Below, in pieces: positions 25,501 through 51,927 of a stretch of 52,977 nt of DNA. The DNA comes from a virus. Position 1 is the stretch's first letter. Every line of letters begins with the position of its first letter. The DNA is taken from the IMG/VR virus record IMGVR_UViG_3300048917_000597, positions 1 to 52,977 of that record; one strand, given 5' to 3'. Both the position numbers and the translations under genes were made by a program. A model generated the notes under the pieces. It did not search any database. It was given only the letters and a program-made list of their open reading frames with translations, and had not been told where the DNA came from.

Positions 25501-27846
25501 CTGGGCCCGCGCGCCCTTGTCGATCAGGTCCTGGTTCGTCGGGTCGGTGGCCAGCGCCTTGGTGGCCTCGTCGACCTGGGCCTTGAGGTAGTCGCGCTGG
25601 ATGGCCAGACCGCGACCGTGGTTCAGGAGGTTGATCGCCAGCTGGCGGGCGCTGCTCCCCACGGCATCACCGCGCCAGCTGGCGTCCTCGAGCTGGATCA
25701 TCGCGAACGCACCATCGGTACGGCGGGTTCCGTGCTCGAGGTCTGCGGCCAGCTTGTTCTGGTAGGCGTCGTGCACCTTCTCGATGTGGACGACCGAGCC
25801 GGTCTGCCGCATCGCCATGTCGGAGCTGGCCTGCTTGTAGGCCGCCTTGAGACTCGAGGTCTCGATGGCGGAGAGCGCCGAGAGGGAGCGCTGCTGCACC
25901 TCGGTCATCGCGTTCCACTCGTCACGGCTGAGCTTCGCGCCACCGGTGCGCATCTCGTAGGCCGCGGCAGCCTGGCTGTAGGCCTGGGTCGCCGGGTCGA
26001 CCGCGTGGGCCTGGAACCCCAGCCCCATGCCGGCACCGGCCGCGAACCCGTAGAGCGCGCTGGTCCCGATGTCGGACAGGGAGATCGACTGGTTGTGGCT
26101 CAGGTTGTCGAAGACCGACTGCAGGCCCTCCTCGTAGCCCTCACCCATCGCGTTCACCACGATGGAGGTGAGGCGGCTGTCGCCCTGTGCCATGGACCGG
26201 GCCGCGCGGTAGAAGTCGTCGGCGCTGTAGGCACCGCCACGCTTGGCGGCCATCCGCATCCCGATGATCCGCGCGCTCACGTTGCCGAGCTGCTCGGACG
26301 GCGCCAGCAGCGCGAGGGTGGCCTTCTTGCCGGTGACGTTGCCCGCCTCGTCCAACGTCCACCGGACACCGACGTGCTCGAACTCGCGACCGGCCTCGGC
26401 ACCGGTGGCGTTCGCAGCGCCCTTGCGGAACATGTTCAGCTTGTTGCCGAACCGGCCGACGGCACCAAGGCCACCCTCGTAGACGGTCTGCTCGCCAGCA
26501 GCCCGCAGGCCGGAGTCGACCTTGCCGGCCAGGCCGTGGACCATCCCGAGCTGGACCGCGTCGATGCCGACCTTGCCGATGCCCGCAGCACCGGAGACCA
26601 GGTCGACGTGACCCTTGTCGTCGCGGAAGATGTTGTCGAACCCGCCGCGTGTGTAGTCGAAGGACTTGCCACCGGTGGCCGCGAGCTCGGTGACCTCGCC
26701 ACCGATCGTGCCCGCCATCTGCGTGGTGTAGAGCAGACGACCGACCGGGCTGCCGAACTGCAGCACGGAGTCGGCGACCGTGGCCCCGACGTCGGCCACC
26801 TGGAGCCACTTGCTCACCGTCCGGTCGCCCTTGTCGTCGAGCCGGTAGAACTCGGACTGACCGTCACCGGCATGCCCGAGATCCGCGACGCCCTGCGTCA
26901 CGTTGGAGATCGGGGACAGCAGCCGTCCACCGAAGCCGGACCACTGCTGCACCGCCGTGCCGACACCGGCGAGTGTGGAGTTCTCCTTGAAGCTCATGGA
27001 CGTGATCTCGGCAGCACGCGCGGCCTGCTGGTCGAGGGTGTCGCGGTTCAGCCAGGCACCGACGCCACCGACCGCGGAGCCGCCGAGGAACGCGACGCTG
27101 GTGGGGATCGCGTCCAGCGGCCCGAGCCAGGCGCCACCGACCGCGGTCACACCAGCAGCCAGCGTGCCGCCGGCCAGCGCGCCACCACCGACGATCGCAG
27201 CCTGGGACTTGCCCTCGGCGATCTCACCAGTGCGCCGGTCGACGTTCTCGTTGAACTCCTTGCTGGCCAGCATCTTGGGCACCTCGACGTTGTTCGTCTC
27301 GTGTGCCTGCTGGACCGCCGAGCTCAGAGCGGTGGTGGGATCGGAGTCGGCGTAGATGTGGGCCTTGGTCTTCGCGTCGAAGAGGATGTCGGCCATCATC
27401 AGGTTCGCAGTGGCCGGCTGGTTCTTGAACTCGTGGAAGACGTTGCCGACCTTCTTGCCGTTGTCGTAGATGTCTCCGAAGTGGAAGTCCTGGCCACTGC
27501 CGTCCGTCGCGGTGTGGTCCCAGGTCACGACACCCGTGGCGAACTGCGGCGTCTGGAACTGCTCGTTCAGCTTGCCCGCTTCGCCGGCCGCCTTGTTCGC
27601 CTCCATGGCGCGGGCCCAGAAGTCGGAGTCCCAGCCGTTGTTGGTGCCCTCGCGGTTCTGGCCGGTGTACCAGCTCTTCGCGGTGTAGGTCGTGGGATCG
27701 CCCGGATCGCTGCTCTGTCCGGGCGGCGCGTACGGGTCGTAGAGCCCGGAGTCCTGACGAGCCTTCGCGTCCTGCTGCAGACCGCTGGGGTTGGCGGGGT
27801 TGTTCGCCTGCTGGTTCGCGTACGGATCGTGCAGCTGCTGGGGCAC
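13528..27846 (-). CDS. Giant multidomain virion/ejection protein (4772 aa from GTG 27846; ORF open to 27951) with RNA-polymerase-like double-psi beta-barrel signatures
   Basis: This is a single uninterrupted ORF. GTG 27846 lies 7 nt after GAGGAGG. The N-terminus has Gly-zipper hydrophobic segments. GDYDGDKV is at ORF residues 940-947 (DYDGD = 941-945), preceded by RVDIEG and ARDP. GDKKVVEWNGMKYML starts at residue 3064. A GNAT-like stretch lies near residue 3378. A second hydrophobic Gly-rich segment lies near residue 4160. The C-terminal tail is Gly/Tyr/Ser/Arg-rich. Amino-acid composition is realistic, unlike the antisense shadow ORFs. Confidence 0.9.
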   Translation of the reverse strand: MPQQLHDPYANQQANNPANPSGLQQDAKARQDSGLYDPYAPPGQSSDPGDPTTYTAKSWYTGQNREGTNNGWDSDFWARAMEANKAAGEAGKLNEQFQTPQFATGVVTWDHTATDGSGQDFHFGDIYDNGKKVGNVFHEFKNQPATANLMMADILFDAKTKAHIYADSDPTTALSSAVQQAHETNNVEVPKMLASKEFNENVDRRTGEIAEGKSQAAIVGGGALAGGTLAAGVTAVGGAWLGPLDAIPTSVAFLGGSAVGGVGAWLNRDTLDQQAARAAEITSMSFKENSTLAGVGTAVQQWSGFGGRLLSPISNVTQGVADLGHAGDGQSEFYRLDDKGDRTVSKWLQVADVGATVADSVLQFGSPVGRLLYTTQMAGTIGGEVTELAATGGKSFDYTRGGFDNIFRDDKGHVDLVSGAAGIGKVGIDAVQLGMVHGLAGKVDSGLRAAGEQTVYEGGLGAVGRFGNKLNMFRKGAANATGAEAGREFEHVGVRWTLDEAGNVTGKKATLALLAPSEQLGNVSARIIGMRMAAKRGGAYSADDFYRAARSMAQGDSRLTSIVVNAMGEGYEEGLQSVFDNLSHNQSISLSDIGTSALYGFAAGAGMGLGFQAHAVDPATQAYSQAAAAYEMRTGGAKLSRDEWNAMTEVQQRSLSALSAIETSSLKAAYKQASSDMAMRQTGSVVHIEKVHDAYQNKLAADLEHGTRRTDGAFAMIQLEDASWRGDAVGSSARQLAINLLNHGRGLAIQRDYLKAQVDEATKALATDPTNQDLIDKGARAQVLLDNTERVLVWSQRVNDDIEQRLQRIHADGVTPAEIVAEVRSMNQFLQDAFDRVDIEGVAEPMSDQDKLDLAKAVSLVFARDPHADSGSYHILVPQASEQLTLYSSDNVVQISHALLPALRGDYDGDKVRQLAQLVLDDASYANGRSGQNFVGAGEHVNVGAPKYEEFITDYMSEALTGRNQAIQKYASATLTQIGASIRRRYANVVDQVVLDRILRNFNDAVESNVKSARSALLDGLASEAGTQITEFAHGNLSNEWLWIDQLVRTSFQEFQGNYAANRPMISPQPNSDVVAPNQQSNEVRERRAARSATIGQEVGLITAGDTMFRKDQKLHYASQLASVLSADQAPTQERLSELAAIYEEWGQRLTRSALDDIRGKDDITTRVYAQLLALSESSAEQISAKLGYTVNASETLAVLANTAVTDWDYDSKGNIVGGKKTITLAQMLLKRSIAEDRVEKASILAVSPELQARYATLESMTRPGGSDHPVNAERAFVEVVGSQQMFALLGEAANVFGPQLTVEQFTRAYVGASEQTRYLMDSELRGEAEYLGRKRSKNIPYGLEEMRAGEITAYRAVVDSILAVGHHRLTIDKAGKLTGEFAERSDRISDSFQNAHERIVTALNKFIAISPRKHGETAAETVERMLDANPDFARKLLDLIPDAAVNSVYRVDEENNLHIANWVYDMFAISDSKHAEMYYWRNILRAEINYLGINQGKSEGSEGEASRNNIRLPRRIHRIVSALSSSPDKGLMLEQFIMQMEKSTDLSEFMRWVNMTPGVRGNQAPLTAWVDDVAEFDQDKAHGGWTTALDGAELREAISSLRVAADNLVSDLATEKASIASDFQVISAVERWLAHLDDPSVAVDAGDEELHRQFVLAIEHSNDYIVGVGSQQMLLQTIGAVRGLNAQSHTKGKTAENVRLNGMFDALRDARGYTVNYERLMAMMTSSNLDAVSGNMALLAKDGVRTMDDEGRTVEWTQPDAKQMIKLLKNADTRPLARAILFPQVLEANAAGYLSNQLLVGKDLKSLLNGNSHKELFPKNDRLSYDAAMRYLMLVESSASKFGGNLAHFGVQRAVNDLVIARTSAADHQLTNYEIEQLTRDAYYDFAVALQSASSLAMTPTTAGVDPLRAVHRLVGLQQRNMLVADNLGIKAEDRALLGPMIQDLLDTRAIQLEDAKREAAESIDPALAGDPATVAQLQKEHAALQADYDRFVERVDLLKSDGVAGRAISMFNIKKGEADQSAAKKDAIHSFIQSHLAWVDSMMASKKTLDKYTYQILDSARTGQPDLSDDEWAELSRAVIAVYITDATTMTAPGISTPPFPDVSTSQGVYDARYFDASFSYIADPLLDQTSPLIQAGMEIAARAGRTNTEVPQQVVEVLGRTLFKEHSLGSWTPDTARASMEANTRLDSAAAEPAISQAGVSPKLQATIAAAMRRSYTDPGEAYLSKTSLTWFNLTNGSDFDEVDVTMPDGTNNPTPRAMLNNRFARSVVATFVDPETGEVTQEDLFKYDQNLGVPFWSVEEASTTGYQAVHLSRIQRTVEFLADAKKVKPDSIGVMVEFFHPESQPSDGEFANNLFFEGTSFKLPGDSANGLLETLWFRPGGISPTAQAQALDASKLGMPALQNFTGPDKATVESIERTWADDFAGMLRAKARILTETDLGFGTLDPEYYNAHLKGLKIRHFVRGTDANGSPVLWSAEQVMEFQRNNPPDADGNRAPLPFNDAALWIPSDDVLRSMLGETGDQGVKRLFGDQLTPDITQVKRYRGVTPDMLGRFIKGVSGETKTLDETRIANRARQSMLTVRGQMSEAERNRFDARIKFYAEARIQSDLDRSEMMQRGTGGFDPSRNLQAAVARGEDALHAEDIAFDWIAAGIPFIGMRDPQETMLGRMMIQNVDAMLEADGFRTGWVYREGWSDAKMPEGQLNEHSLGNDRKGFRVSPGDIVVVELDSFSGNRETAKKRLDYLADRGAIIVLASPDGTGDMRAELSQYLEGHGLGYSRMAGSGHVMQPNTSVSRYANQRARVSTLTEMRGISKRSMVAILHVADKDIEENSAWVRPNNERLSAIGVSVDLIPSNFLYRFNVPVESYGNTSQVDKVAAHLKGLDDAAGQKLLKEQANGHLKGKQRQQADDDFDHAWTRLMARIDSNTGSLLPTPGEQFEIGDMIPLTDNHHNVVLYRHGYKAPKDDVIKKLTSIAMPDKADAHNIAVFPTDPEDAATVHTGTVVSVNPRSGYGLSMEMNIPFQQFGDKKVVEWNGMKYMLTPMGERIKLPDHGFFPGWGIDMIVSQHDTISKEAFDGIINNHRNAIAIFGADFLPDVAKVFKTSPANARALLYAIATGRDSLTIEAADELMTSSRFPAMISAMLKPVADASANLTTEDWVSEIADPQSPEAQITRALVLYLMTPGARVDDVLKSGGFNDNNATPDSQSILMPRLFTQVFDFAPHGSELRKEMNRRFNKQFNNSPFNPGEGYSLAEDFTLEIRMGTPAKSGVMSLNEAERLFTDRGMTVGVSTEAHMVDGVERPIVKLRVDKEGERWPMGHFWYDANDGEIISVDILDKWKKQGIARDLMRYAEALSTDSGYEMPRHSDVLSAEGAAFAAAVAPAKSTPGTGDTTKNLSGWLQIAEVHSSGDNPVKNGMAFSEMQDGAVSSHSAAIAYLATGAQTTYAGDLAKTRVFTEGKGLERFDEDVVDGGVWRLMNRLADADAGTRWRRDMPAEAARRHNGRDAMVQYRQEIPVDDINGWDQAGRNSYKAKRLQVVHALGLRDSYAPMVDFWVRQLLGQPSSMDADAEVSRGITQKNALLALDDMLANVKDGYLPTISGMVPLMHVNDLRIIFTENQNKLTPFALRTSLEAKSQIAKTWDDYVEISLGGALTSDNLFDSAFLLALDGHMHTYQAATESLLNLPVSMDSRISMFLLDPQTNDDYIQLRSSVSDVMNRLTRDPIVLDTTRATMGDLTGENWVSGPQTSKHAPTAVIAKRREAMRQWRKENGVPMPLDITVKDLRKNGQKFIDMSTNTNALARMLINLRVGTAMINPALWFSMGPEQWVRGTLDRAANLLVGHSTQGKLAMAEAKLSETGLGQYAEQFGITARYSPDQIKRAKEVYAVLGQRNDFKAMVYRDLMYLRPSMHGIGKVEKWLENYAKFGAKMQDPTWGMRSDTLARRYFEAVMDEVAFSPGEHNLTIDSLMDNLQMDPQWLQKNAPELHLAGTNAIAQFRSLKATPLSLALRGIYEPLSESTNSATSFLGTVLLKMPLLFSNYAFNVMTTITGMQGMSDFTAAVLHGRTNALKHPVTFWSRLQAKANGEEITPDDEANFDMSTVLEGVDLSRSFIRGGLTHTGLFMAGMMAGGLGLSGEDDETKKRRRMAKLQGAPFVYDPRAVENDFRNSDSIFLDSLPFGLGSYFQVGDPSAPGGVRSMAGLNWTLKQFVSPILGMERFYETGDFKQVTWGFQDAVGSFPLINTMMWSDAVETAHEFASMADDEAALGGPHNMVKAAALLTNGVGVYERMLFENSFVNQLYTSWDAYDRDPYKLPQTDSDGTIQKDIVGEPYGQDTALTPHVDPETGQLVMGYLGRSTASGTLHALTENRFTLATAMSLFTGLTGGQNDYYRKNMPVKTQEVPKTPSTKEEVEGLVRKISGDQGGQPLITEDEIRYALKGQAMRTKDWDLYNNLDKIAHEKYMEQKGAVEPLSVIDKAGREALTKAGARAVYWGIMKNSVTLDSPSLAGIYVPMTMRDEIAKEWTKELIQEGVDMGLDQTKATARMKRLWYGPTSDPSVQGLGDILFSKNISYQPMATYNQLNTTYVMGPDGRPWATGITRGNLMTALGIQPVKRLYTSEQGFPGQKGSTGTDSRLNTTDYINRINTGMRALELVDDSRYTPTDVEIGKSIEDAIKEAAKQQYTPYTPYQNKGTSGYSRSGYGHRSYGGGGGYASRGYPNYNKMYAPPHAIAPYGDSIPFINTTNPIIRRADVRRERVWSERGRLKQWQ

Positions 27847-28089
27847 CGCTCTACCTCCTCGACCGGAGCAGTGGCGGCTCCTGAGGCGTGAGCGTACACA
27901 CACTTCGCGCCAACCGGTGCCACGACCCGGCGGGTCGTCACGTCCTTCCACCTAGCTTCTGGTGGCGCTTCTCGAAGCGTCAGCCAAACGGGGGTGCCCG
28001 ATTGGCGCTTTCCCCTCGGTCGGCATCGTCTGGAAGACCGAACCGAGTGCTTCAGACCAATCGAGTGCTTCGTTTGGCACGGATGTTGG

Positions 28090-28260
28090 GATAAGCAAAA
28101 AAGTTTCCGTCCAGTACGAATATATACATATAAAACAAACAACACATACTATACCCCCTATACATATATATGTATGGTATATAGGATCCATATTCGATAT
28201 GTAATAGGGATAACGTTGTGGAGTTTGTGTCAATCTGATTTTTGGATTGGTATGTGGATA
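28090..28260. promoter_or_regulatory. AT-rich island (candidate origin/DNA-unwinding element, early promoter cluster or genome-end region)
   Basis: There is an abrupt local drop in GC in an otherwise GC-rich genome (..gcaaaaaagtttccgtccagtacgaatatatacatataaaacaaacaacacatactata..). It contains the perfect palindrome ATACATATATATGTAT at 28160-28175 and lies between the divergent giant gene and the first plus-strand gene. Confidence 0.6.
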
Positions 28261-28304: not shown

Positions 28305-28547
28305 ATGGCCAACAGCTGGGTTGAGCAGCTCATGCTGCAGACGATCAGTGAGGATTCGGCGGAGACCAAGGTCGCGCTGAAGACTCTCGAGGATCGTCAC
28401 CTGGAGAAGCAGCAGGACTTGCGTGATCGCAAGGCACAGAGCATCGCTCTCTACGAGAAGATGCTCATGGAGGCTCAACGTCGTAAGGCGCGGCCGTCTG
28501 TGATCAACGCCTATGAGGCGTTGCTGGCACAGACGACGGCGGTCTGA
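28305..28547 (+). CDS. Small early protein, coiled-coil-like (80 aa)
   Basis: ATG 28305 lies 9 nt after AAGGAG. The track ORF starts at 28242, inside the AT-rich island. The protein is helical and charged (EDRHLEKQQDLRDRKAQSIALYEKMLMEAQRRKA). A canonical terminator follows. Confidence 0.6.
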   Translation: MANSWVEQLMLQTISEDSAETKVALKTLEDRHLEKQQDLRDRKAQSIALYEKMLMEAQRRKARPSVINAYEALLAQTTAV

Positions 28548-28553: not shown

Positions 28554-28598
28554 AGCTGTCATTAGTGCGTAAGCGCTAATGGCAGCTACTGCTTTTTT
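28554..28598 (+). terminator. Rho-independent terminator
   Basis: A roughly 15-bp stem (AGCTGTCATTAGTGC / GCGCTAATGGCAGCT with G-U pairs, GTAA-type loop) is followed by TTTTTT at 28593-28598, 7 nt after the stop at 28545-28547. Confidence 0.8.
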
Positions 28599-28794
28599 AC
28601 ATGCATGCATGCGGTGATGAGCAACAAAGAATAAAACAACCAGACACCTTCGCCTAGTCGCTCGACGCTTGCACCGCTGCTAAGCGGTGGCTAATCGTCA
28701 TAGGCCAAGGTGCGCATGCGTGCATGATTGTTTTAGCAGTAGCTGTCCATTGCGCTTGCGCAGTAGACAGCGAGCTGGCGCATAGCCTTATCTC

Positions 28795-28830
28795 GCTAGC
28801 GTCAGCTAGCGTTTTGCTAGCACAGCTAGC
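28795..28830. repeat. Phased array of four GCTAGC palindromes
   Basis: GCTAGC occurs at 28795, 28805, 28816 and 28825 (spacing 10, 11, 9 bp), in non-coding DNA. A fifth copy is at 29190. Confidence 0.7.
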
Positions 28831-28833
28831 ATT

Positions 28834-28886
28834 GTCCACTGGAACAGTGGACTACCGATGTGACAGTCGGTGACGAGCTGTCACAT
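28834..28886. promoter_or_regulatory. Two adjacent inverted repeats (8-bp stem/3-nt loop hairpin; 9-bp arms/11-nt spacer)
   Basis: GTCCACTG-gaa-CAGTGGAC at 28834-28852. ATGTGACAG(28858-28866)...CTGTCACAT(28878-28886). Confidence 0.6.
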
Positions 28887-28902
28887 ATGTGGGGTCAGCG
28901 CT

Positions 28903-29162
28903 GGTGTAGACACCTGCCAGGGTGTCTACACATAACCGCAGGTCAGCGCGCACTTAGGGGTGCTGTAGACATGTAGACACCCCTAAGTTTGAAACCTTTC
29001 TACCCAGCGAAGCGACAGATGAAGTAGGCACCCATGTGGGTGACTACACTTTTTTGCCCTGTCTACGTGTCTACATCCACCAGAACAGGCCTCTGACCTG
29101 GGCTTATGTGTAGACACGTGGGGGGTGACTACACCCTGTCTACATCAACGGGGGTGACTACC
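28903..29162. repeat. Motif array A: about 8 exact plus 3 variant copies of GTCTACA/TGTAGAC (extended GTGTCTACAC); paralogous to array B
   Basis: Contains GGTGTAGACACC-tgccag-GGTGTCTACAC (28903-28931), TGTAGACATGTAGACACCCC (28964-), TGTCTACGTGTCTACA (29060-29075), GGCCTCTGACCTG.G.TTATGTGTAGACACGTGGGGGGTGACTACAC (29088-29134), CTGTCTACA and GGGGGTGACTACC. It is collinear block by block with 51699-51927. Confidence 0.9.
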
Positions 29163-29276
29163 ATCTATGTGTGGCAAACCAGGCTGCTTGCTAGCAGGAG
29201 AAGCACGTCTGCTTCGGTCGTACGCTCACGACGTGGCTACGCTTAGCCACAAAGATTAGTGACTCTTTAGGGAATA

Positions 29277-29341
29277 GGGAGTGAGAGATTGGATTCCAAT
29301 GCATAAGCATTGGGAGTGAGAGAGATTAGGGAGTGAGTGTT
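29277..29341 (+). repeat. Three direct repeats of GGGAGTGAG(AGA)...TT (Shine-Dalgarno-like) flanking a 7-bp hairpin
   Basis: GGGAGTGAGAGATT at 29277-29290, GGGAGTGAGAGAGATT at 29312-29327, GGGAGTGAGTGTT at 29329-29341 (the last serves as the RBS for ATG 29342). Hairpin CCAATGC-ataa-GCATTGG at 29296-29313. Confidence 0.75.
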
Positions 29342-29776
29342 ATGACGCTAGTACTCACGAGTGTTGCGGTCGTTGTGATCGCAGCGTTCTTCATCGTCAC
29401 GCTGGTTCAGCGTGCGACGATCAAGCGGCAGGAGCGTGAGCTCATGTGCGAGCGCAGCCTGATCGACAACTGTGGCATCGCCTTGCAACAGGCCAGCCAC
29501 ACGATCGACGTGATGGTCGAGGACCACCACATGCTGATCAACCAGCGGCGCCGGCTCAGTGCGGACAACCTCGCGTTGACCGCGCAGAACAGGAACCTCG
29601 AGCGTTCCGTCGTGCTGCTGAGCAACGAGCTCGACAACATCAACGTGGACTACGCGAAGCAGGTCCTCGCTGCCACCTTGCTCGAGACGCAGCAGCCGCT
29701 GCTGCCGAGACATCGTGACGGCGAGACGCAGCAGCAGCAGCCGCTGCTGCCTCGCACGCCTTGGGACGGCGAGTGA
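29342..29776 (+). CDS. Early membrane-anchored coiled-coil protein (144 aa)
   Basis: ATG 29342 lies 8 nt after GGGAG. It has an N-terminal TM helix (TLVLTSVAVVVIAAFFIVTLV) followed by a helical region, and a duplicated QQPLLPR segment near the C-terminus. Confidence 0.7.
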   Translation: MTLVLTSVAVVVIAAFFIVTLVQRATIKRQERELMCERSLIDNCGIALQQASHTIDVMVEDHHMLINQRRRLSADNLALTAQNRNLERSVVLLSNELDNINVDYAKQVLAATLLETQQPLLPRHRDGETQQQQPLLPRTPWDGE

Positions 29777-30123
29777 TGTACGACTGGCTCGTGGCGTTGG
29801 CCATGCTCTGCTTCGTGTGGGCGCTGTGCGCCACCTGGGTTGCGATTGGCAACGCGCGTGAGCTGCGTTCACTCGAGGACGACTGGGCCAAGTACGTCAC
29901 GTTGGTCGCCGAGTTCTTCGGGCCCGACGAGGCCGCTGCGCTGGCGTTCGATCAGCACGTCTACGACGCGCTGCACCATGTGCAGCCGAAGCGGGCGCCG
30001 GACTACTCGATCAAGCTCGAGGATGCGCCGGCTCTGGCGCAGATCCTCCAGCTTGCGCTGGACAGTGACGGACCTGTGTCCGGCACGGTCGATGCGGACG
30101 GCAACGTCCACGTCGACAAGTAA
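29776..30123 (+). CDS. Early small membrane protein (115 aa)
   Basis: TGATG junction with the upstream gene. The hydrophobic N-terminus is MYDWLVALAMLCFVWALCATWVAIG. Confidence 0.65.
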   Translation: MYDWLVALAMLCFVWALCATWVAIGNARELRSLEDDWAKYVTLVAEFFGPDEAAALAFDQHVYDALHHVQPKRAPDYSIKLEDAPALAQILQLALDSDGPVSGTVDADGNVHVDK

Positions 30124-30160
30124 CGAGCGGACCAGCCGCTCACCTACATGGAGGTTTTCC

Positions 30161-30346
30161 ATGACGCATGACCAGCAGGCCCTGATGGCGCAGCTCCGCA
30201 CTTCTCACGACGCCTGGGCGTTGTACAAGAAGTTGCAGCTGCTCCATGGCACAGGGCATGTGGGGCAGGAGACCGTTGACGAGGCGCGCGACTTCGCGCG
30301 TCAGGTCAAGGTCGACCTGCTCAAGATGCTCGGGCTTCCAGGCTGA
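30161..30346 (+). CDS. Hypothetical small protein (61 aa)
   Basis: ATG 30161 lies 6 nt after GGAGG. The longer track ORF (29840..) overlaps the previous gene in another frame. Confidence 0.6.
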   Translation: MTHDQQALMAQLRTSHDAWALYKKLQLLHGTGHVGQETVDEARDFARQVKVDLLKMLGLPG

Positions 30347-30433
30347 GCGTCACCCGTGCTGCCGGAGAGACAACCGGCATGTGCGCTGCCGTCGACCACC
30401 ACTGGGGGGTGTGGTCGGCGGCGGCGCACTCTT

Positions 30434-30459
30434 CACTGCCAGCCTCGGGGCTGGCAGTG
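30434..30459 (+). terminator. GC-rich intergenic hairpin (no U-tract)
   Basis: CACTGCCAGC-ctcggg-GCTGGCAGTG, a 10-bp perfect stem in the 30347-30492 gap. Confidence 0.4.
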
Positions 30460-30492
30460 TGACCACCCACCAACAACCTGAAGGGTTGCAAC

Positions 30493-30801
30493 ATGAAGGA
30501 CACCACGAAGACGGTGACGCCCACGGGCAAGCTCGAGAAGCCCGAGAAGAAGACGCGCACCGTGCTCACGCCCGCGCAGCGGGTGGCCAAGATCGAGGCG
30601 GACCTGGCGGCAGCCAGGGCCAAGCTCGAGAGCAAGGACCGCTCGGCTCACGCCGACCTGCTCGGCAAGCGTGCCAAGCTGGTCGAGCGGCAGACCAAGA
30701 TCAACGGTGAGCTCTCGGCCATCAACGCCGAGATCGCCGCGATCGAGGAGCGTGTCGAGGACCTGTCCTCGACCGAGCCGTCGGCTCCGACCGACAGCTG
30801 A
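30493..30801 (+). CDS. Hypothetical Lys/Ala-rich coiled-coil protein (102 aa)
   Basis: It is the only long ORF in this interval with a realistic helical sequence (AQRVAKIEADLAAARAKLESKD...INAEIAAIEERVEDL). The RBS is weak (GAAGGG). Confidence 0.6.
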   Translation: MKDTTKTVTPTGKLEKPEKKTRTVLTPAQRVAKIEADLAAARAKLESKDRSAHADLLGKRAKLVERQTKINGELSAINAEIAAIEERVEDLSSTEPSAPTDS

Positions 30802-31598
30802 TGAACAGCGCGGCGACGCGCTGGACCATCGACGAGATCCGCAAGCAGCTGCGTGGGGAGCCGGTCTTCTTGGCCGGCTCCCTCGTGGCCGCGGATGTGC
30901 ACGGCCTCGCCGGTGCTTTCAGCGACGTTGACCTGTTCTGTCCGACAGGCAACGTGCTCATCTCCACAGGACAGAAGCTGCTCGGCCTGGGCTACAAGTT
31001 CGACGATCGCTTCGATCGTGTGTGGCACAGGTGGTTGCGCTACGGCTTCAAGACGTGGCACACCAACAGCCTGCGACTGACGTCGCCTGCTGGCATCGAG
31101 ACCAACCTGGTCTACAAGCTGACCGACGGGCACGCGACCACCTCGCTTGCGCAGGTGATCGAGTCGTTCGACTTCGGTCTGCTCGGAGCAGGCTGGGACC
31201 TGGAGTCCGACACGTTCCGTGACATGCGGCCGTACCTGTTCCCACAGTGGACAGGGTTGGACCCGATGGCTGCGTTGCCCATGATGCCGAACAAGGCGGA
31301 CAGCTGGGCGGGGGGATTCATCAGCCAGTACAACGGTCTCCGTGAGATCGGGCGCTACGCCAAGTACGTCGGCTACGGGTACGACATGTCGCTGGTGAAG
31401 AACCAGCTGGTGCAGGGCTACCGGATGGCGGACCTGTACCTGTCGAACCACTTCGACACCGAGAAGCAGCAGCTCGGCCAGATCTACTCGGCCATCGCTG
31501 CGCACATGGAGCTCGACCACGTCGATGAGCTGCGCCTTGCGGCGAAGACCATCGACTACAAGGACGGGCTCGACGTGATCATGGAGGCTCTCGAATGA
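30801..31598 (+). CDS. Pol-beta-superfamily nucleotidyltransferase (predicted)
   Basis: TGATG junction. The N-terminal VFLAGSLVAADVHGLAGAFSDVDLFCP fits the hG[GS]-x(9-13)-DhDh minimal NTase signature. A candidate third acidic residue lies in GIETNLVY or ESFDFGLL. Confidence 0.55.
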   Translation: MNSAATRWTIDEIRKQLRGEPVFLAGSLVAADVHGLAGAFSDVDLFCPTGNVLISTGQKLLGLGYKFDDRFDRVWHRWLRYGFKTWHTNSLRLTSPAGIETNLVYKLTDGHATTSLAQVIESFDFGLLGAGWDLESDTFRDMRPYLFPQWTGLDPMAALPMMPNKADSWAGGFISQYNGLREIGRYAKYVGYGYDMSLVKNQLVQGYRMADLYLSNHFDTEKQQLGQIYSAIAAHMELDHVDELRLAAKTIDYKDGLDVIMEALE

Positions 31599-31762
31599 AG
31601 CTGCTGCTGATCATCGAGGTGGACGACAACGTCGTCTACCCGCAGGAGGACGACCAGGTCGCAGTGGTCGTGTCTCCCGACTTCGTCGGGGACTGCGCGG
31701 CCGCAGGCGACACGGTCTTCATGGGCGAGGTCCTGCTCGGGACGGAGGTCGAGCCAACGTGA
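31595..31762 (+). CDS. Mini-protein (55 aa), paralogue of the next gene
   Basis: ATGA overlap with the NTase stop. It is below the ORF-track length cut-off. The sequence is MKLLLIIEVDDNVVYPQEDDQVAVVVSPDF... Confidence 0.5.
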   Translation: MKLLLIIEVDDNVVYPQEDDQVAVVVSPDFVGDCAAAGDTVFMGEVLLGTEVEPT

Positions 31763-31941
31763 GACTCCTGCTCAGCGTCGAGGTGACGCCCAACAACGGT
31801 GACGAGGACGCAGTCCTTCAGGAGCTGGTGCTCGCGAAGGGTGGCTTCGTCACCCTGATCATGAGCCACGGGATCCAGTGTGATCTCGAGGTGCATGACG
31901 TCGAGCGGGTTGGCCTGCCAACCCAGGAAGACGGTGAGTGA
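31759..31941 (+). CDS. Mini-protein (60 aa), paralogue of the previous gene
   Basis: GTGA overlap. The N-terminus (V/M)RLLLSVEVTPNNGDEDAVLQELVLAKG parallels MKLLLIIEVDDNVVYPQEDD. Confidence 0.5.
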   Translation: MRLLLSVEVTPNNGDEDAVLQELVLAKGGFVTLIMSHGIQCDLEVHDVERVGLPTQEDGE

Positions 31942-32135
31942 TGCAGTGTCCTGACTGCAAGGGCCGCGTCGTCGGCACGAACTGCTCCGCTTGCGGGGCA
32001 GTTGTGTCGGTGGCCGACGATACGCTGGACTCCATGGTCCAGGCGGGATCGGTCCCGAACTTGGCGGCTCTGTTCGCCAAGGCCAAGAAGAGCGGCGCTC
32101 TGGGCGCCGTGTCCGTGTACGGCGAGGGCGCGTAG
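31941..32135 (+). CDS. Zinc-ribbon mini-protein (64 aa)
   Basis: TGATG junction. The N-terminus MQCPDCKGRVVGTNCSACG carries CxxC-x9-CxxC. Confidence 0.55.
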   Translation: MQCPDCKGRVVGTNCSACGAVVSVADDTLDSMVQAGSVPNLAALFAKAKKSGALGAVSVYGEGA

Positions 32136-32180
32136 CCCTCGTACCACCATGCAACACCGAGGTTCTAGGAAGGAACCAAC

Positions 32181-32594
32181 ATGTCGTTCACCACTCAGAA
32201 GCTGGTCGGCCACCGTGTGCTCGTCACCGGGGCGGACATCCTCGGCAACGAGGGCAGCATGGTCCTCGACTCCACGCAGTGGGACGAGGTCAACGACCGC
32301 AAGGAGTTCAGCCAGGCGGAGGCTGACTTCGACGCCGCGGTCGAGGCGTTCTTCGCTCCGCTGAACGAGGCGGCCGACGCCGTCAAGGCAAAGCTGGAGA
32401 AGCCCGAGGACCCGACGTCCTACGTCGTGCTGTCCGAGGGCACCGAGGGCGTCAAGCCCGAGCCGGCCGTGCTCGTGCGGCTCAGCCCCGACAGCGTGGT
32501 GCTCCGCATCATCGAGTCGGGCAACACCGATCGCCTGGTGTGGGTGCTCGACCGTCTCGAGGTCCTCGAGACCGTCGCCGTCCAGGCGCCGTAG
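32181..32594 (+). CDS. Hypothetical acidic protein (137 aa)
   Basis: ATG 32181 with AGGAAGGAA upstream. A 12-bp hairpin follows. Confidence 0.65.
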   Translation: MSFTTQKLVGHRVLVTGADILGNEGSMVLDSTQWDEVNDRKEFSQAEADFDAAVEAFFAPLNEAADAVKAKLEKPEDPTSYVVLSEGTEGVKPEPAVLVRLSPDSVVLRIIESGNTDRLVWVLDRLEVLETVAVQAP

Positions 32595-32618
32595 CCGCCG
32601 CTGCGGTACAGCACCAGC

Positions 32619-32650
32619 GAGGGCGCCGGCCCACAACAGCCGGCGCCCTC
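32619..32650 (+). terminator. GC-rich intergenic hairpin (no U-tract)
   Basis: GAGGGCGCCGGC-ccacaaca-GCCGGCGCCCTC, a 12-bp perfect stem. Confidence 0.45.
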
Positions 32651-32685
32651 GTATCAGGCACTTCACACGAGACGAGGGTACATCC

Positions 32686-33648
32686 ATGCTCGAGCTGATT
32701 CTCAAGCTCTACACCATGGCAATGGTGGGTGACGTGAGGTCACCGATGCCGCACCTGTTCGGTCCGCCGGGGTGTGGCAAGTCCAGCGTGGTGCAGGAGG
32801 CTGCCGATCTGATCGGCTGCAAACTGCACATCATCAACGTGAGTCGGCTGTCACCACTCGAGCTCGAGGGTGTGCAGATGCCGACCACCAACGAGGACGT
32901 GCAGAAGCTACAGCTGCTGCTCGCTACGTTCTGGTCCAGCTTGGAAGATGGTGACATCGTCCTGCTGGATGAGTTCCTCCGTGGTTTCCCGGAGGTGTAC
33001 AACGGGCTGCTCGACATCCTCACCAGCCGTCAGGTTGGTGGGTTCGTGCTGCCCAAGGTCTTCATCATCGGTGCGTCCAACAGCACCGTGTCGTACGACA
33101 AGGCGCTCGAGGATCGGCTGCTGCATCTGCCGGTCCCGGACCCGCGCGTGAAGAAGCGCGTGAAGAAGGACTTGGCCAAGCGCATCGTCGATGCACTGGG
33201 CCTGCTGCCGGAGATGGTGGACAGCTACGAGATGACGAGCTTGCTCGACACCGAGGTGCTGCCCATGTACGAGATCCTCGACAGCTTGAAGAACAAGGCC
33301 AGCTCGCCGGCCATGCTCAAGGGCACCAGCCTGCGCAACCTGATCGGGCAGGCGCAGCTCCGCGAGGTGCAGGTTCCTGCACTCGCAGAGGTGCTGCAGA
33401 TGAACAACCAGAAGGCGATCACTGCAGCCAAGTGGCAGTACGTCTTCCTCACCACGGGTAAGAACGCTGACCCGAGGTACACCAAGGTGGCAGAGTCGCT
33501 CGTTGGTAACGAGAAGCTCACGCCAGTGCAGGCTCAGAACCTGAGCCTCAACCTTCAGCTCATCGAGATGGAGGCTATCCGCCATGCACGGGAAGGGAAT
33601 GAAGATGACGCAGTCAGCGACATCGTCGACGACGATGTCTTCAGCTGA
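32686..33648 (+). CDS. AAA+ ATPase, MoxR-like
   Basis: Walker A LFGPPGCGKSSV, Walker B DIVLLDEFLRG, followed by ..IIGASN.. (sensor-1-like). 320 aa, immediately followed by a vWA gene. Confidence 0.8.
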   Translation: MLELILKLYTMAMVGDVRSPMPHLFGPPGCGKSSVVQEAADLIGCKLHIINVSRLSPLELEGVQMPTTNEDVQKLQLLLATFWSSLEDGDIVLLDEFLRGFPEVYNGLLDILTSRQVGGFVLPKVFIIGASNSTVSYDKALEDRLLHLPVPDPRVKKRVKKDLAKRIVDALGLLPEMVDSYEMTSLLDTEVLPMYEILDSLKNKASSPAMLKGTSLRNLIGQAQLREVQVPALAEVLQMNNQKAITAAKWQYVFLTTGKNADPRYTKVAESLVGNEKLTPVQAQNLSLNLQLIEMEAIRHAREGNEDDAVSDIVDDDVFS

Positions 33649-34582: not shown

Positions 34583-34592
34583 TCGGGGGAGT

Positions 34593-34626
34593 GCTCGGCT
34601 GCTGGTTGCAAGACCAGCAGCCGAGC
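34593..34626 (+). terminator. GC-rich hairpin (14-bp stem), preceded by a second hairpin at 34563-34581
   Basis: GCTCGGCTGCTGGT-tgcaag-ACCAGCAGCCGAGC. Upstream is CAGCGGTT-ctg-AACCGCTG, which spans the vWA stop codon. There is no U-tract. Confidence 0.5.
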
Positions 34627-34681
34627 TCCAGCCCCCGAGCTGAAGGTAGCGCCTCAGCATGAGACTTGCCTGGGTTTCAGA

Positions 34682-34702
34682 GAAAAACTTTTCGCGAATC
34701 CA
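34682..34702 (+). promoter_or_regulatory. Conserved intergenic motif GAAAAACTTTTCGCGAATCCA (copy 1)
   Basis: Nearly identical to 38932-38953 (GGAAAAACTTTCGCGACATCCA). It lies 44 nt upstream of the SSB start. A weaker relative occurs at 28096-28113. Confidence 0.55.
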
Positions 34703-34745
34703 GGCACGTAAGAAACCGAGACCCATCAAGTGAAAGGGGCCCACC

Positions 34746-35429: not shown

Positions 35430-35480
35430 GTCGGCCAGCGCTCCTCAGCCTTCGGGCTGATACAAGTCTGGCGCTCAACC

Positions 35481-35521
35481 GGTGGCCCCACCTCGGACTG
35501 CGTCCCCGGGGTGGGGCCACC
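35481..35521 (+). terminator. GC-rich intergenic hairpin (12-bp stem, 17-nt loop)
   Basis: GGTGGCCCCACC...GGTGGGGCCACC. It is preceded by TCAGCC-ttcg-GGCTGA at 35448-35463. Confidence 0.4.
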
Positions 35522-35549
35522 TTCATCCACCAACGTGAGGAAGAGACAG

Positions 35550-36263: not shown

Positions 36264-36273
36264 AGGAGATGCA

Positions 36274-38385: not shown

Positions 38386-38388
38386 GAG

Positions 38389-38929: not shown

Positions 38930-38931
38930 CA

Positions 38932-41847: not shown

Positions 41848-43239
41848 ATGCTTGAGCTGAAGACCAAGAAGGAGCTGGCCACCGAAGCCTTCAAGCTGGG
41901 GCAAGGGCACCAGCTCGTGCGGTATCGCAGCGTGACCTACATCCCTGCGGACTTCGAGACCAGAGACGCATCCGTGACACCGGACGCCGACCGTACGATC
42001 TGGCTGCCGCTCACGCGGAAGCAGATCCAGCGGCTGGCGGCTGATCAGTTCAACACGCTCTTCGGCAGTGACGGGGAGCTGAGTGCGTTCGACTTCATGG
42101 TGGCGCAGACAGCCACCAACATCGACACCGACATCACCTCGCTGCTCGTGCGCACCGAGCAAGGGCTGATGGAGCTGGACGACACCGGCACGCTGGTGCC
42201 GAACAGCGGGGAGTTCAGACCCAACACTCTGGTGCCGATGCTCAACCCGGACCCGGTCGAGAAGGACCGGGTCTTTGCTGTGATCAGCGGCTGGCTCGAC
42301 TCCGACGAGGAGGCCGAGTCGTTGCTGGCTCACCTGGCCTCGGCGCTGGCGCCTGGCTGGTCGGCAGTGAAGTACGTGCTGCTGCTGGGTGAGGGGCGCA
42401 ACGGCAAGAGCCTGCTGCTGAAGATGCTGCACGGTGTGTTCGGCGCCCACAACGTGAGCGACGTGACCCGGCAGGACATCAGCGAGGGCAGCGCCGTGGT
42501 GACCGAGCTCAATGGCAAGCTGCTGAACATCGTCTTCGACGGGCAGGCCGTGTACCTGAAGGACAGTGGCCGGGAGAAGTCGCTGATCGCTGGCGAGCCG
42601 GCGCCCATCCGTCGTCTCTACGAGTCGACGGCGACGACGGTGCAGACCAACGCACTGTTCATCGAGGGTCTGCAGCGGGAGCCGAAGACCAGCGACAAGT
42701 CGACCGCCTTGCAGAAGCGGTTGGTGAGGTTCCAGTTCCCGAACGTCTACGCGCTGAGCCACAAGTTCGAGCGCGAGATGCTGACCGAGGCCAGCCTCGG
42801 TGCGTTCCTGTCCCTGCTTGTCGACAGGTACGTGCTCGAGGATCACGTGGCCGAGAGGCTGGCGCCGACACACAAGGCGATCGAGCTTCAGCTGGAGCAG
42901 ATGTTCGTCAACAGCATGGGTCTGCAGTTCATCAAGTTCAGCGAGGAGACCGAGCCCATGGGTGTGGGCGCGTACCTCGGCAAGCCAGTGGGCGAGCTCG
43001 TCAAGGCGTTCCAGTCCTGGCGGCTGAAGGAGATGGACATGAGCAACTGGGCGGAGCCGGATGTGCTGGCGCTGTTCGGTCCGCTGATCAACACCGACCG
43101 GAAGTCCGAGAGGGCGGCCGGCAAGGTGCGCAAGGTTCGCGTCGTGACCTCGTTCAAGCAAGAGGCCACGGCTTTCATCGACACACTGAAGGGAGATCCA
43201 GATGACGCCGAGCTCCTCGCTGCCTTGGTGGAGGACTGA
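41848..43239 (+). CDS. D5/P4-family primase-helicase (SF3 NTPase)
   Basis: ATG follows AAGGAAGAGGAG. Walker A LLLGEGRNGKSLLLKML, then LNIVFDG, then ..ALQKRLVRFQFPN.. as in the recalled phage/plasmid primase P4-family C-terminal domain. Confidence 0.75.
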   Translation: MLELKTKKELATEAFKLGQGHQLVRYRSVTYIPADFETRDASVTPDADRTIWLPLTRKQIQRLAADQFNTLFGSDGELSAFDFMVAQTATNIDTDITSLLVRTEQGLMELDDTGTLVPNSGEFRPNTLVPMLNPDPVEKDRVFAVISGWLDSDEEAESLLAHLASALAPGWSAVKYVLLLGEGRNGKSLLLKMLHGVFGAHNVSDVTRQDISEGSAVVTELNGKLLNIVFDGQAVYLKDSGREKSLIAGEPAPIRRLYESTATTVQTNALFIEGLQREPKTSDKSTALQKRLVRFQFPNVYALSHKFEREMLTEASLGAFLSLLVDRYVLEDHVAERLAPTHKAIELQLEQMFVNSMGLQFIKFSEETEPMGVGAYLGKPVGELVKAFQSWRLKEMDMSNWAEPDVLALFGPLINTDRKSERAAGKVRKVRVVTSFKQEATAFIDTLKGDPDDAELLAALVED

Positions 43240-44065
43240 CGACTACGACGGCGCCACCCGTGACGCAACGATTGCGTCGTTCGCCGGGCCCAAGGGAATG
43301 GCTCTGGTGAGGGCGTGGCCTGATGGTCGCACCGATCCAGGCTGGGGCCTTACGTCACCGAGTGGCGACGGCTTCATGCTGCGCTACATGCGTGGCGAGT
43401 TCAATGAGCGGCGCGTGCTGTACGGCTACGTCCGTGACAAGTGGGCGTTCGCCTACGTGATGCGCTCGCTGAAGCTGGTGGTCGTCGACATCGACGGCAA
43501 GAACGGTGGGCTCGAGCACGCCAAGAAGCTCGGCATGCTGCCGCCCACCATGGCGGAGACGTCCAAGAGCGGGAACGGGTATCACCTGTTCTACGAGCAC
43601 GACGAGCCCTGGGACAACGACAAGGGCTTCGGTGCCCTGAGCGACCGCATTGGGATCGAGCAGGGGGTGGACATCCGGGCGACCGGCTGTGTCTACCACC
43701 ACAAGCAGCAGCGCTGGAACGACCGTCGGGTGGCGAAGCTGCCCGAGTTCCTGCGTGACCTGTTGTCGCACCGTGAGCAGAAGCTCGCGGCCACACATGC
43801 CAGGATCGACACGATCCTGGCTGACCATGATGAGCTGGAGGTTCTCATGCTGCACGACGAGATCATGACGGAGCTGAAGAAGCCGATCCCCTCGGGGAAG
43901 CGGAACGTGACGCTCTTCGCGATCGGCAACCAGATGCGCCAGGCGCAGATCCCGGGCTGGGAGCAGTTGGTCACCGACCGGGCCACGGCCGTGGGGCTGC
44001 CGGCGGACGAGACGCTGAAGCTGATCAGCAACATCAATCACTACGGCTCGCCGGTCACGCCGTGA
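43202..44065 (+). CDS. Bifunctional primase-polymerase (prim-pol) domain protein
   Basis: ATG 43202 lies 6 nt after GGGAG, with a 38-nt overlap on the upstream gene. Contains LKLVVVDIDGKNGG (DxD) and SGNGYHLFY (sGxGxHhyf). Confidence 0.7.
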   Translation: MTPSSSLPWWRTDDYDGATRDATIASFAGPKGMALVRAWPDGRTDPGWGLTSPSGDGFMLRYMRGEFNERRVLYGYVRDKWAFAYVMRSLKLVVVDIDGKNGGLEHAKKLGMLPPTMAETSKSGNGYHLFYEHDEPWDNDKGFGALSDRIGIEQGVDIRATGCVYHHKQQRWNDRRVAKLPEFLRDLLSHREQKLAATHARIDTILADHDELEVLMLHDEIMTELKKPIPSGKRNVTLFAIGNQMRQAQIPGWEQLVTDRATAVGLPADETLKLISNINHYGSPVTP

Positions 44066-51615: not shown

Positions 51616-51698
51616 AACGCTCCGTAGGTAGGTTGGCTAGAGGATCGAGCGAACAGTAGCACCAGCATGGCGCCCTGGCGCCTAACCCCGGCTCGTGG

Positions 51699-51927
51699 CG
51701 TGTAGACACCTTGCGGGTGTCTACAGGGTGTCTACACGTTTGCCCAGGTCAGAGGCGGTTTTCAGCCGATGTAGACATGTAGACACCCCCTTCTTTGAAA
51801 CCGGTAACAGGATGTGAACAGCGGTTGAAAAGTTTGGGGGTGTCTACGTGTCTACAACGGACGAAAAGGGCCTCTGACCTGCGGTTATGTGTAGACACCT
51901 GGGGGGTGTCTACAGGGGTGACTACAC
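51699..51927. repeat. Motif array B: about 9 exact plus 1 variant copies of GTCTACA/TGTAGAC; paralogous to array A
   Basis: Contains GTGTAGACACC-ttgcg-GGTGTCTACAGGGTGTCTACAC (51700-51737), TGTAGACATGTAGACACCCCC..TTTGAAACC (51770-51802), GGGGGTGTCTACGTGTCTACA (51836-51856) and GGCCTCTGACCTGCGGTTATGTGTAGACACCTGGGGGGTGTCTACAGGGGTGACTACAC (51869-51927). Confidence 0.9.

Follow-up and report, generated by a model that had tools for sequence, protein, structure and literature searches.

Which protein reads two dense clusters of the same short word, placed 22.8 kb apart on the 52.85-kb circular genome of a soil phage, and what would its binding accomplish? The question is raised by the IMG/VR virus record IMGVR_UViG_3300048917_000597 (positions 1 to 52,977), here called the window, by which is meant the whole stretch of 52,977 nucleotides that was analysed. 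One cluster, array A, lies in non-coding DNA at 28893-29163, and its paralogue, array B, at 51699-51927. An original prediction, made from the sequence alone, had taken the clusters for binding sites of one phage-specified protein, and had offered as their role a regulator, promoter recognition by a candidate virion RNA polymerase (RNAP) or, in last place, replication-origin iterons. The last of these is the reading that the present analysis supports best. We favour, with moderate confidence, array A as an iteron origin of the SaPI or P4 type, and array B as a second origin or as a cis element like crr of P4 or oriR of SPP1. The function is deduced from an anatomy that resembles the SaPI, P4 and SPP1 origins, from a helicase resembling PriRep5, and from the co-variation of the C-terminal domain (CTD) of this helicase with the repeated word.

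Architecture of the two arrays

Because its first and last 127 bases are equal (bases 1-127 are identical to 52851-52977), the window represents a complete circular metagenome assembly of 52,850 unique bases. The word GTCTACA/TGTAGAC matches 22 times in the window, compared with 2.84 ± 1.54 times in dinucleotide-preserving shuffles (maximum 8; 0 of 100 shuffles reach 22), and a 9-mer with one mismatch allowed matches 29 times, compared with an expectation of 8.1 ± 2.7. Fifteen of the 22 exact 7-mer copies fall inside the two non-coding arrays of about 230-260 bp, with seven in array A (28905-29144) and eight in array B (51701-51914), where approximately 0.013 per array would be expected. When the array copies are stacked, a T precedes the word at position -1 in 20 of 20 and a G occupies position -2 in 16 of 20. 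The site is therefore longer than the 7-mer, with the consensus (G)GGTG[T/a]CTACA, and is present in 10-11 copies per array, on both strands. Among the 45 loose matches elsewhere in the genome, none has the full site GGTG[T/A]CTACA. The clustering that had been predicted is thus real, with strong enrichment in a formal shuffle test and with the full site confined to the arrays. The predicted tally for array A, about eight exact copies and three variants, needs correction: there are seven exact copies. The variants are GACTACA, at 29042 and 29127, and GTCTACG, at 29061, to which a degenerate GTGACTACC near 29154 can be added.

Arrays A and B are collinear paralogues, with their elements in equal order and orientation and with 76% column identity, which bears out the claim that every block of array A recurs in array B. 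The plan of each array runs from an outer cluster of three sites through a second type of element, box 2 (ATAACCGCAGGTCAGAGGC), and an inner tandem pair to the centre, and then in mirror image through an inverted inner pair and an inverted box 2 to the other outer cluster. The elements are as follows, with a strand given where one was assigned.

28893..29163: array A, full extent; the two strands together carry about 11 copies of GGTG[T/A]CTACA, along with two box-2 elements; the universal array and putative primary origin
28904..28931: left outer cluster of array A; perfect inverted pair GTGTAGACACC n6 GGTGTCTACAC
28932..28949, plus strand: left box 2 of array A, ATAACCGCAGGTCAGCGC; second conserved site type, with a mirror copy at 29088-29107
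28964..28979, minus strand: left inner tandem pair of array A, TGTAGACATGTAGACA; sites 8 bp apart and directed away from the centre
28980..29059: centre of array A, 80 bp, 50% G+C compared with 65% for the genome; AAGTTTGAAACC and one GACTACA variant; putative unwinding or loading region
29060..29075, plus strand: right inner tandem pair of array A, TGTCTACGTGTCTACA; inverted relative to the left pair
29088..29107, minus strand: right box 2 of array A, GGCCTCTGACCTGGGCTTAT; reverse complement of the left box
29108..29162: right outer cluster of array A; GTGTAGACAC, GGGGGGTGACTACA, CCCTGTCTACA and GGGGGTGACTACC
51699..51927: array B as a whole; clade-specific paralogue of array A; putative second origin, crr-like cis element or initiator-bound fork barrier
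51745..51756, plus strand: core of the left box 2 of array B, CAGGTCAGAGGC; exact inverted partner GCCTCTGACCTG at 51870-51881
51770..51785, minus strand: left inner tandem pair of array B, TGTAGACATGTAGACA
51786..51840: centre of array B, 55 bp, 51% G+C; TTTGAAACC ... GAAAAGTTTG
51841..51856, plus strand: right inner tandem pair of array B, TGTCTACGTGTCTACA

Several of these elements had been recognised in the original prediction. The arms of the 11-bp inverted repeat match perfectly across the 6-nt spacer (28904-28914 and 28921-28931, 100% complementary), the direct repeats beside it are found as GGTCAGCGC at 28893-28901 and 28941-28949, the tandem unit is present as TGTAGACATGTAGACACCCC..TTTGAAACC, and the TGTCTACGTGTCTACA unit and the GGCCTCTGACCTG..GTGTAGACAC unit are both in place. 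What the first reading had missed is that the whole array forms a long imperfect palindrome; in array A the arms at 28922-28979 and 29060-29117 are 58 nt long and 78% complementary. Single-strand folding gives z-scores of -13.0 for array B and -5.2 for array A, a hairpin potential that follows automatically from the inversion of the presumed protein-binding sites. Box 2 of the array A type also occurs in the relatives L012, L043, L009 and L044. Short, G+C-rich hairpins without T-runs are dense on either side of array A (28600-28900 and 29165-29260, for example GCTAGCGTCAGCTAGC, TTGTCCACTGGAACAGTGGAC and GTGACAGTCGGTGACGAGCTGTCAC), and comparable runs of hairpins are seen in relatives and on the 3' side of array B (51930-52010).

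A lineage-specific word and its candidate reader

The nearest cultured relatives of the window are Arthrobacter phage MissAmericana and the Microbacterium cluster EK / Burro podophages. These are distant kin, with proteins 30-84% identical, and they are described as lytic and circularly permuted phages with a virion-associated giant protein lacking the motifs of the N4 virion RNAP (PMC7302621; PMC8281081). Neither of these two papers mentions repeat arrays. A full-text literature search with the motif returned unrelated primer sequences only, and no origin, promoter or regulatory site for this phage group is described in the searchable literature. A blastn search of both arrays against 50,697 phage records gave no match; the kinship is detectable at the protein level only. 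A scan of bacterial genomes found no prophage relatives. The G+C content of 65% and the hosts of the relatives point to an actinobacterium as the probable host.

Relatives were gathered with an exact 17-mer from the array, which gave 16 viral contigs, and with protein-anchored searches using the genes beside arrays A and B, which gave 21 further loci; two closer metagenome relatives were fetched via the helicase, and five isolates were read directly. Related arrays were surveyed by scanning de novo for the densest repeated 7-mer, together with reading of the sequences. The scan picks the equivalent intergenic region in almost every locus. The original prediction had named close relatives as the place where its arrays might prove to be absent; in all relatives that were examined, which comprise five isolates and 12 uncultivated contigs, the A position holds an array built on the same plan. 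The plan and the position are constant, and the word itself changes from lineage to lineage:

GTAGACA: the window, L007, L010, L013, L021, L026, L032, L033, L043 and others
GTAGTCA: L023-L025, L034-L036 and L044
Mixture of GTAGACA and GTAGTCA: L037
GTAACGA: MissAmericana, L027 and L028
GGTAACG: Araxxi, Burro and Arete
CGTAACC(GG): Akoni and Atraxi

The change of word affects all copies in a genome together. This can be followed in the B arrays of two relatives: L043 (75% amino-acid identity in the helicase) retains GTAGACA, and L044 (73%) has GTAGTCA in every copy. Box 2 is lineage-dependent too, with the GTAAC clade carrying the palindrome CCATGTCTCGCATGG instead. The centres, flanked by the inverted inner pairs, measure 44-80 bp in 24 arrays and have a G+C fraction of 0.32-0.61, compared with 0.58-0.69 for the locus; AACTT/AAGTT occurs 20 times in them, in 14 of the 24 centres and in all motif classes, compared with 3.5 ± 1.8 in shuffles. 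Array B was seen solely in the GTAG[A/T]CA clade (L003, L004, L006, L009, L012, L014, L032-L037, L043 and L044), is absent from MissAmericana, Akoni and Araxxi, and has a centre of nearly fixed length, 54-57 bp in 9 of the 10 B arrays of divergent relatives.

Since the words differ between phages of one host strain, and since a genome changes all its copies at once, the arrays must be read by a protein that the phage encodes and that co-evolves with its sites. This supports the central proposal of the original prediction, that the arrays are sites for one phage-specified protein. A host factor was rejected on the same grounds: phages of M. foliorum use different words (Akoni CGTAACC, Araxxi GGTAACG), and GTGTCTACA differs at two positions from the actinobacterial DnaA box TTGTCCACA.

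Dyad arrays of TGTAGACA are also found in unrelated mobile elements of 38-61% G+C (L015 1-320, L017 2560-2920, L018 10830-11170, L016 2400-2900, L049, L052, L061 and L064). The arrays of L015 and of L017/L018 directly follow the 3' ends of primase-helicase genes (Prim-Pol+DUF3987 and VapE/DUF5906, respectively), which is the position of crr in P4. A tie by homology was rejected, as the proteins of L015 and L017/L018 are unrelated to each other and to the helicase of the window, and the word is also present in unrelated bacterial contigs. These arrays apparently represent a convergent iteron use of one 8-mer, and are of interest as an analogy only.

The best candidate for the reader is the primase-helicase of the replication block, whose gene and neighbour are arranged as follows.

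41848..43239, plus strand: SF3 (D5 / DUF5906-type) primase-helicase, 463 amino acids (aa), Pfam DUF5906; proposed initiator and array reader
42868..43203, plus strand: CTD of the primase-helicase (residues 341-452), with a basic beta-hairpin after its helices; proposed iteron-recognition domain
43202..44065, plus strand: Prim-Pol (AEP) primase, 287 aa, directly after the helicase; Pfam Prim-Pol 4.1e-6; probable priming partner

The primase-helicase is universal in the phage family. It is predicted to consist of an N-terminal domain (NTD, residues 1-135), an ATPase domain (136-340) and the CTD (341-452). Its AlphaFold2 model (pLDDT 84, pTM 0.78) was compared with the PDB using Foldseek, and the best match is PriRep5 of SaPI5 (7OLA; E 2.5e-15, TM 0.60/0.62 over 416 columns), followed by the PrimPol of African swine fever virus and the poxvirus D5/E5 proteins.

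A comparison of ten family members, domain by domain, separates the three parts of the protein. The identities to the window protein (in %) are:

L007, motif of the window: NTD 40, ATPase 58, CTD 45
MissAmericana, different motif: NTD 40, ATPase 63, CTD 30
Araxxi, different motif: NTD 39, ATPase 57, CTD 23
Burro, different motif: NTD 37, ATPase 56, CTD 24
Akoni, different motif: NTD 30, ATPase 54, CTD 20

At equal divergence of the NTD and the ATPase domain, far more of the CTD is retained in L007 than in the phages with a different motif. MissAmericana and Araxxi, which have GTAACG in common, are 48, 68 and 50% identical to each other in the NTD, ATPase and CTD, respectively. The ratio of CTD to ATPase identity is 0.70-0.84 for same-motif pairs and 0.37-0.54 for different-motif pairs. 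Within this set, the divergence of the CTD follows the repeated word, and that of the ATPase and the NTD does not.

Other proteins were considered as the binder. No DNA-binding domain turned up when the early proteins were scanned against Pfam and PHROG. The early protein 44432-44977 was rejected as the setter of specificity, being 63-71% identical across motif classes and the most conserved of the early proteins. Two proteins of Araxxi, gp23 (a 'DNA binding protein' encoded beside the array) and gp8 (RHH), have no homologue in the window and were set aside, as was the small open reading frame (ORF) 28305-28547 beside array A, the sequence of which is not conserved among relatives. The DUF2800 / PD-(D/E)XK nuclease (35511-36263, plus strand) is 62.5% identical to its counterpart in L007 and 34% to that in MissAmericana, a drop exceeding that of the neighbouring replication proteins; it belongs to an enzyme family and carries an insertion in MissAmericana, and the class-dependent drop may reflect a gene replacement in the lineage of the isolates. 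In Atraxi, gp24 (L070 15056-15475) bears the annotation 'DNA binding protein', and its C-terminal stretch (SIAELDLPVRLHNALGYQGIRTIGDL...) resembles the CTD of the RNAP alpha subunit; gp24 is likewise without a homologue in the window.

If array A is an origin, the following sequence of events can be proposed. The SF3 primase-helicase (41848-43239) would bind the 10-11 copies of GGTG[T/A]CTACA through its CTD, and each of the two inverted inner tandem pairs would receive a helicase ring, so that the rings stand face to face with the 55-80 bp centre between them. The less G+C-rich centre would then melt, allowing the Prim-Pol primase (43202-44065) and the family-A DNA polymerase (36274-38385) to start synthesis. 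Box 2 (ATAACCGCAGGTCAGAGGC) would probably be bound by a second factor, or by another surface of the same complex. Array B would be a later duplicate, present in the GTAG[A/T]CA clade only and bound by the same protein, and it may serve as a second origin, as a cis-acting partner of array A (like crr of P4) or, as has been proposed for oriR of SPP1, as an initiator-bound barrier that contributes to a switch from circle-to-circle replication to concatemer formation. We infer protein binding, melting, origin activity and a role for array B from these features, with array A as the origin of the whole family.

Genome setting and alternative functions

The positions of the arrays among the genes bear on every reading of their function. 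The gene map is based on GC3-based ORF calling, on Pfam and PHROG scans, and on tblastn searches against phage records; its main blocks, with the element closest to array B, are listed here.

Minus strand: leftward virion block, with nozzle 2099-5569, capsid-like protein 10096-11499, portal 11531-13537 and a 4807-aa ORF 13528-27951
1.4 kb, between the leftward virion block and the rightward replication block: control region, which holds array A
29333-45324, plus strand: rightward replication block, with AAA ATPase, Enc34-type single-stranded DNA-binding protein, DUF2800 nuclease, PolA, SNF2-like helicase, primase-helicase and Prim-Pol
36274-38385: PolA, the family-A DNA polymerase, within the rightward replication block
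51615-45284, minus strand: leftward block, which terminates in the large terminase 46230-47693
51653..51663, minus strand: extended -10-like element GGTGCTACTGT, outside array B and about 45 nt upstream of where gene 51615-50827 has its start codon

Array B borders the leftward terminase operon, and is followed by the small rightward ORF 52023-52196. Each array had been said to precede a plus-strand gene for a small membrane protein by about 100-180 nt, and this is upheld, with distances of 171 and 96 nt: ORF 29333-29776 begins 171 nt past array A and has an N-terminal hydrophobic segment, and ORF 52023-52196 (plus strand) begins 96 nt past array B and has two. The latter encodes a two-helix membrane protein on the strand opposite to all its neighbours, and has a counterpart in L043 (19322-19474; helicase 75% identical) that shares a …VPL[IL]Q… motif. 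It looks like a moron that was carried along with array B.

The surroundings of array A hold further elements. Between the start of the giant gene and the small rightward ORF lies a very A+T-rich element (28095-28200, ATATATACATATAAAACAAACAACAC..ACCCCCTATACATATATATGTATGGTATATA) in this genome of 65% G+C, which matches Akoni (L019 17650-17775) and MissAmericana (L001 18640-18765) with 72% column identity; the proteins are only 30-60% identical. A sigma-70 consensus was looked for in this element and was not found; the element may serve as an immediate-early promoter or in unwinding. The small ORF that follows (28305-28547, plus strand, 80 aa, ribosome-binding site aaggaga) ends before a strong intrinsic terminator (28554-28598, a 15-bp stem and a T-run). 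Its place is also occupied by a small ORF in MissAmericana (gp29), Akoni (gp30) and Atraxi (gp28), with no recognisable similarity between the protein sequences. On the other side of the array, at 29274-29340, three copies of (A/T)T(A/T)GGGAGTGAG(A/T)G(A/T) lie upstream of ORF 29333 and run into its start; in relatives, the position of this leader is taken by purine-rich leaders of the (GA)n or GGAGAAG type. No tRNAs and no Rfam families were found in the window.

Several observations weigh against the origin reading. The helicase gene abuts neither array, lying 12.7 kb from array A, which is upstream of it, and 8.5 kb from array B, which is downstream; the SaPI ori and the crr of P4 are placed differently. 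The centres in the window are only moderately enriched in A+T, with 50-51% G+C, and box 2 is without a counterpart in the SaPI or P4 models. The polarity of the GC skew does not switch at either array, leaving no compositional trace of bidirectional replication. Almost all 1-kb segments have a positive skew on the plus strand, whichever way the gene block runs; as the AT skew, unlike the GC skew, flips with gene orientation, the G/C asymmetry is not driven by the coding strand, and it is at most compatible with a predominantly unidirectional or rolling-circle synthesis. When the CTD is modelled alone, its fold matches are weak and non-significant (best E 0.048, TM 0.34-0.37); the top ones are the winged-helix DNA binders RTP, PadR, TcpK-oriT and ORC/Cdc6/MCM, so that a winged helix can be assigned to the modelled CTD only tentatively. 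The co-variation of CTD and word covers about three independent motif switches only, and may be confounded by phylogeny. Finally, a conserved -10-like element stands immediately downstream of array B, an arrangement that would suit a transcriptional role too.

Such a role would make the arrays operators, or enhancer-like platforms, for a phage-encoded regulator (perhaps the helicase, regulating its own expression), with an early/late switch at array A and an internal late promoter beside array B, in the manner of p4 in the central control region of phi29. We consider this unlikely, though less so than the other rival readings. Array A does lie within the 1.4-kb control region between divergent gene blocks, a lineage-specific motif implies a phage-encoded binder here as well, and the ori of P4 overlaps a promoter region too, so that the two roles can coexist. 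At array B, the -10-like element GGTGCTACTGT is found 42 nt downstream of the array and is followed by a conserved leader, CCACCTACGGAG; it is kept in 12 relatives and probably serves the host RNAP as the promoter of the operon ending in the terminase. However, the gap between array and element is not constant, with values between 42 and about 115 nt; L039, one of the relatives, keeps the element although the 500 nt shown upstream hold no array, and the isolates, which share the late operon, lack array B. In the L013/L014 lineage, the polarity of array B towards the downstream late gene is opposite to that in the window. Neither array contains a promoter of the sigma-70 type, in a scan that captures actinobacterial promoters poorly; no universal regulator gene was found, the Pfam and PHROG scans of the early proteins being empty; and 10-11 sites arranged as a 230-bp palindrome around a spacer of fixed length would be an atypical layout for an operator. 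A regulatory role, as originally proposed, is the less probable reading.

The virion RNAP that had been put forward as another reader fares worse. Promoters for an RNAP activity of the 4807-aa virion protein, similar to those of N4 and possibly located on extruded hairpins, would agree with the capacity of the arrays to extrude long hairpins (z -13 and -5.2) and with the virion association of the giant protein in relatives (PMC7302621), but homologues of that protein are reported to lack the N4 virion RNAP motifs (PMC7302621). The protein of the window itself has no match in Pfam, PHROG or PDB sequences, although a remote homology is possible, and no other RNAP domain was found among the scanned proteins of the window. 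The sites are moreover multi-copy, 10-11 per array and on both strands, rather than one per transcription unit; their distances from genes are variable, and the polarity of array B differs between lineages. This option is thus not supported, and we regard it as highly improbable. The 4807-aa ORF (13528-27951, minus strand) takes up 27% of the genome, and only its C-terminal third aligns with gp30 of MissAmericana (34% identity over 1416 aa); the origin reading sheds no light on it.

Two further functions are known to use repeated sites. Small terminases of some phages recognise repeated boxes, as at pacL and pacR of SPP1, and the arrays could be pac sites at which a small terminase subunit starts the headful packaging of a circularly permuted genome. 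The relatives are circularly permuted, implying headful packaging (PMC8281081), and array B opens the operon that ends in the large terminase (46230-47693). Yet the universal array A is 17 kb from the terminase gene, array B at the terminase operon is missing in all cultured relatives checked, two sites 22.8 kb apart would be unexpected for a single pac, the co-variation is with the helicase CTD, and no small terminase subunit was identified; a pac function is very unlikely. Least probable of all is a partition function, in which the arrays would be centromere-like (of the parC/parS type) or would serve a genome-organising protein. The parC of R1 consists of iterated short repeats flanking a core, which the arrays resemble, and in an unrelated contig (L050) a TGTAGACA pair lies upstream of a ParA-like gene. 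No ParA, ParM or ParB-like gene was found in the scanned proteins of the window, however, and the relatives are lytic phages without an integrase or a repressor (PMC7302621).

A more elaborate scheme would combine several of these functions in a two-site device. The initiator bound at arrays A and B would bridge or block the genome and so time the switch from circle to concatemer, in a manner coupled to the adjacent late (terminase) promoter, with box 2 serving a second factor, possibly a fragment of the 4807-aa protein; the arrays would then form a checkpoint of replication, transcription and packaging. We consider this improbable as a whole.

Should the reading of array A as an iteron origin be correct, the replication origin would be located for the whole group, which comprises the Microbacterium cluster EK / Burro phages, MissAmericana and a very large uncultivated soil clade with more than 760 helicase homologues in metagenomes. 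The at least five iteron words, paired with co-varying helicase CTDs, would constitute a natural specificity series from which the way self-loading SF3 helicases read DNA could be worked out, and could provide orthogonal ori/Rep pairs usable for plasmid tools in Actinobacteria. The restriction of array B to one clade would be a natural experiment on a second origin-like array in a headful-packaging phage.

Comparison with known origins

The closest parallel is provided by the SaPI elements. The SaPI Reps are self-loading initiator-helicases, in which a C-terminal winged-helix domain recognises short iterons (PMC9371898). A SaPI ori contains 6-12 such iterons, half on each side of an AT-rich centre, with at least two iterons per side in opposite directions; loading is presumed to place one hexamer on either side (PMC9371898). 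The arrays described here likewise consist of short iterons in 10-11 copies, in two sets around a less G+C-rich centre; the inner pairs are oppositely directed, with at least two iterons per side, the word is specific to the element, and the helicase of the window is structurally closest to PriRep5. They differ in that the SaPI ori is immediately 3' of rep, whereas the arrays lie 8-13 kb from the helicase gene. The sites here are also longer (9-11 bp), an extra box 2 is present, and there are two arrays per genome; primase and helicase are encoded by separate genes, and the identity to PriRep5 is only about 13%.

Satellite phage P4 offers a parallel for the presence of two loci. In its GenBank record (NC_001609), type-1 octamer repeats are found on both strands at ori and, 4.8 kb away, at crr. 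The octamer iterons of P4, on both strands and partly in tandem pairs 9-11 bp apart, are thus distributed over two loci that one primase-helicase binds, a layout similar to that of the window, and the P4 ori is situated in a divergent early/late control region, as is array A. In contrast to array B, crr adjoins the alpha gene and is made up of two direct repeats of 120 bp, and the P4 ori is not a long palindrome. P4 also needs both loci in cis, whereas array B cannot be universally required, because the cultured relatives that were checked do without it.

A further parallel is SPP1, a Bacillus phage that is lytic and packages by the headful mechanism. Its oriL and oriR, each with repeats and an AT-rich unwinding element, are equally organised and both are bound by gp38, and oriR interrupts the late genes together with moron genes (PMC6316719); gp38 bound at oriR has been proposed to stall the replication fork and so to trigger concatemer synthesis (PMC6316719; PMC3485210). 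Here, too, a phage with lytic and probably headful-packaging relatives has two paralogous arrays, with repeats and a putative unwinding region, for one proposed origin-binding protein, and array B also interrupts late genes, accompanied by the small ORF 52023-52196 (in the window, and also in L043). The SPP1 initiator, however, is a separate protein that works with a DnaB-type helicase and its loader, and the SPP1 repeats are direct rather than arranged as a dyad. Pfam and PHROG scans found no gp38 homologue and no DnaB or loader domains in the window.

The SF3 initiators of SV40 and the papillomaviruses (large T antigen and E1) form two hexamers on inverted pairs of short sites beside an A+T-rich tract. 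In these proteins, the origin-binding domain is N-terminal to the helicase and has another fold, and the sites are compact (about 30-60 bp in all). Taken together, these comparisons make it most likely that the kind of element found here is a familiar one, and that what is new is its occurrence in a phage group in which it was undescribed. Its distinctive features are the 230-260 bp dyad, the second box, the fixed 55-bp centre and the clade-specific second copy.

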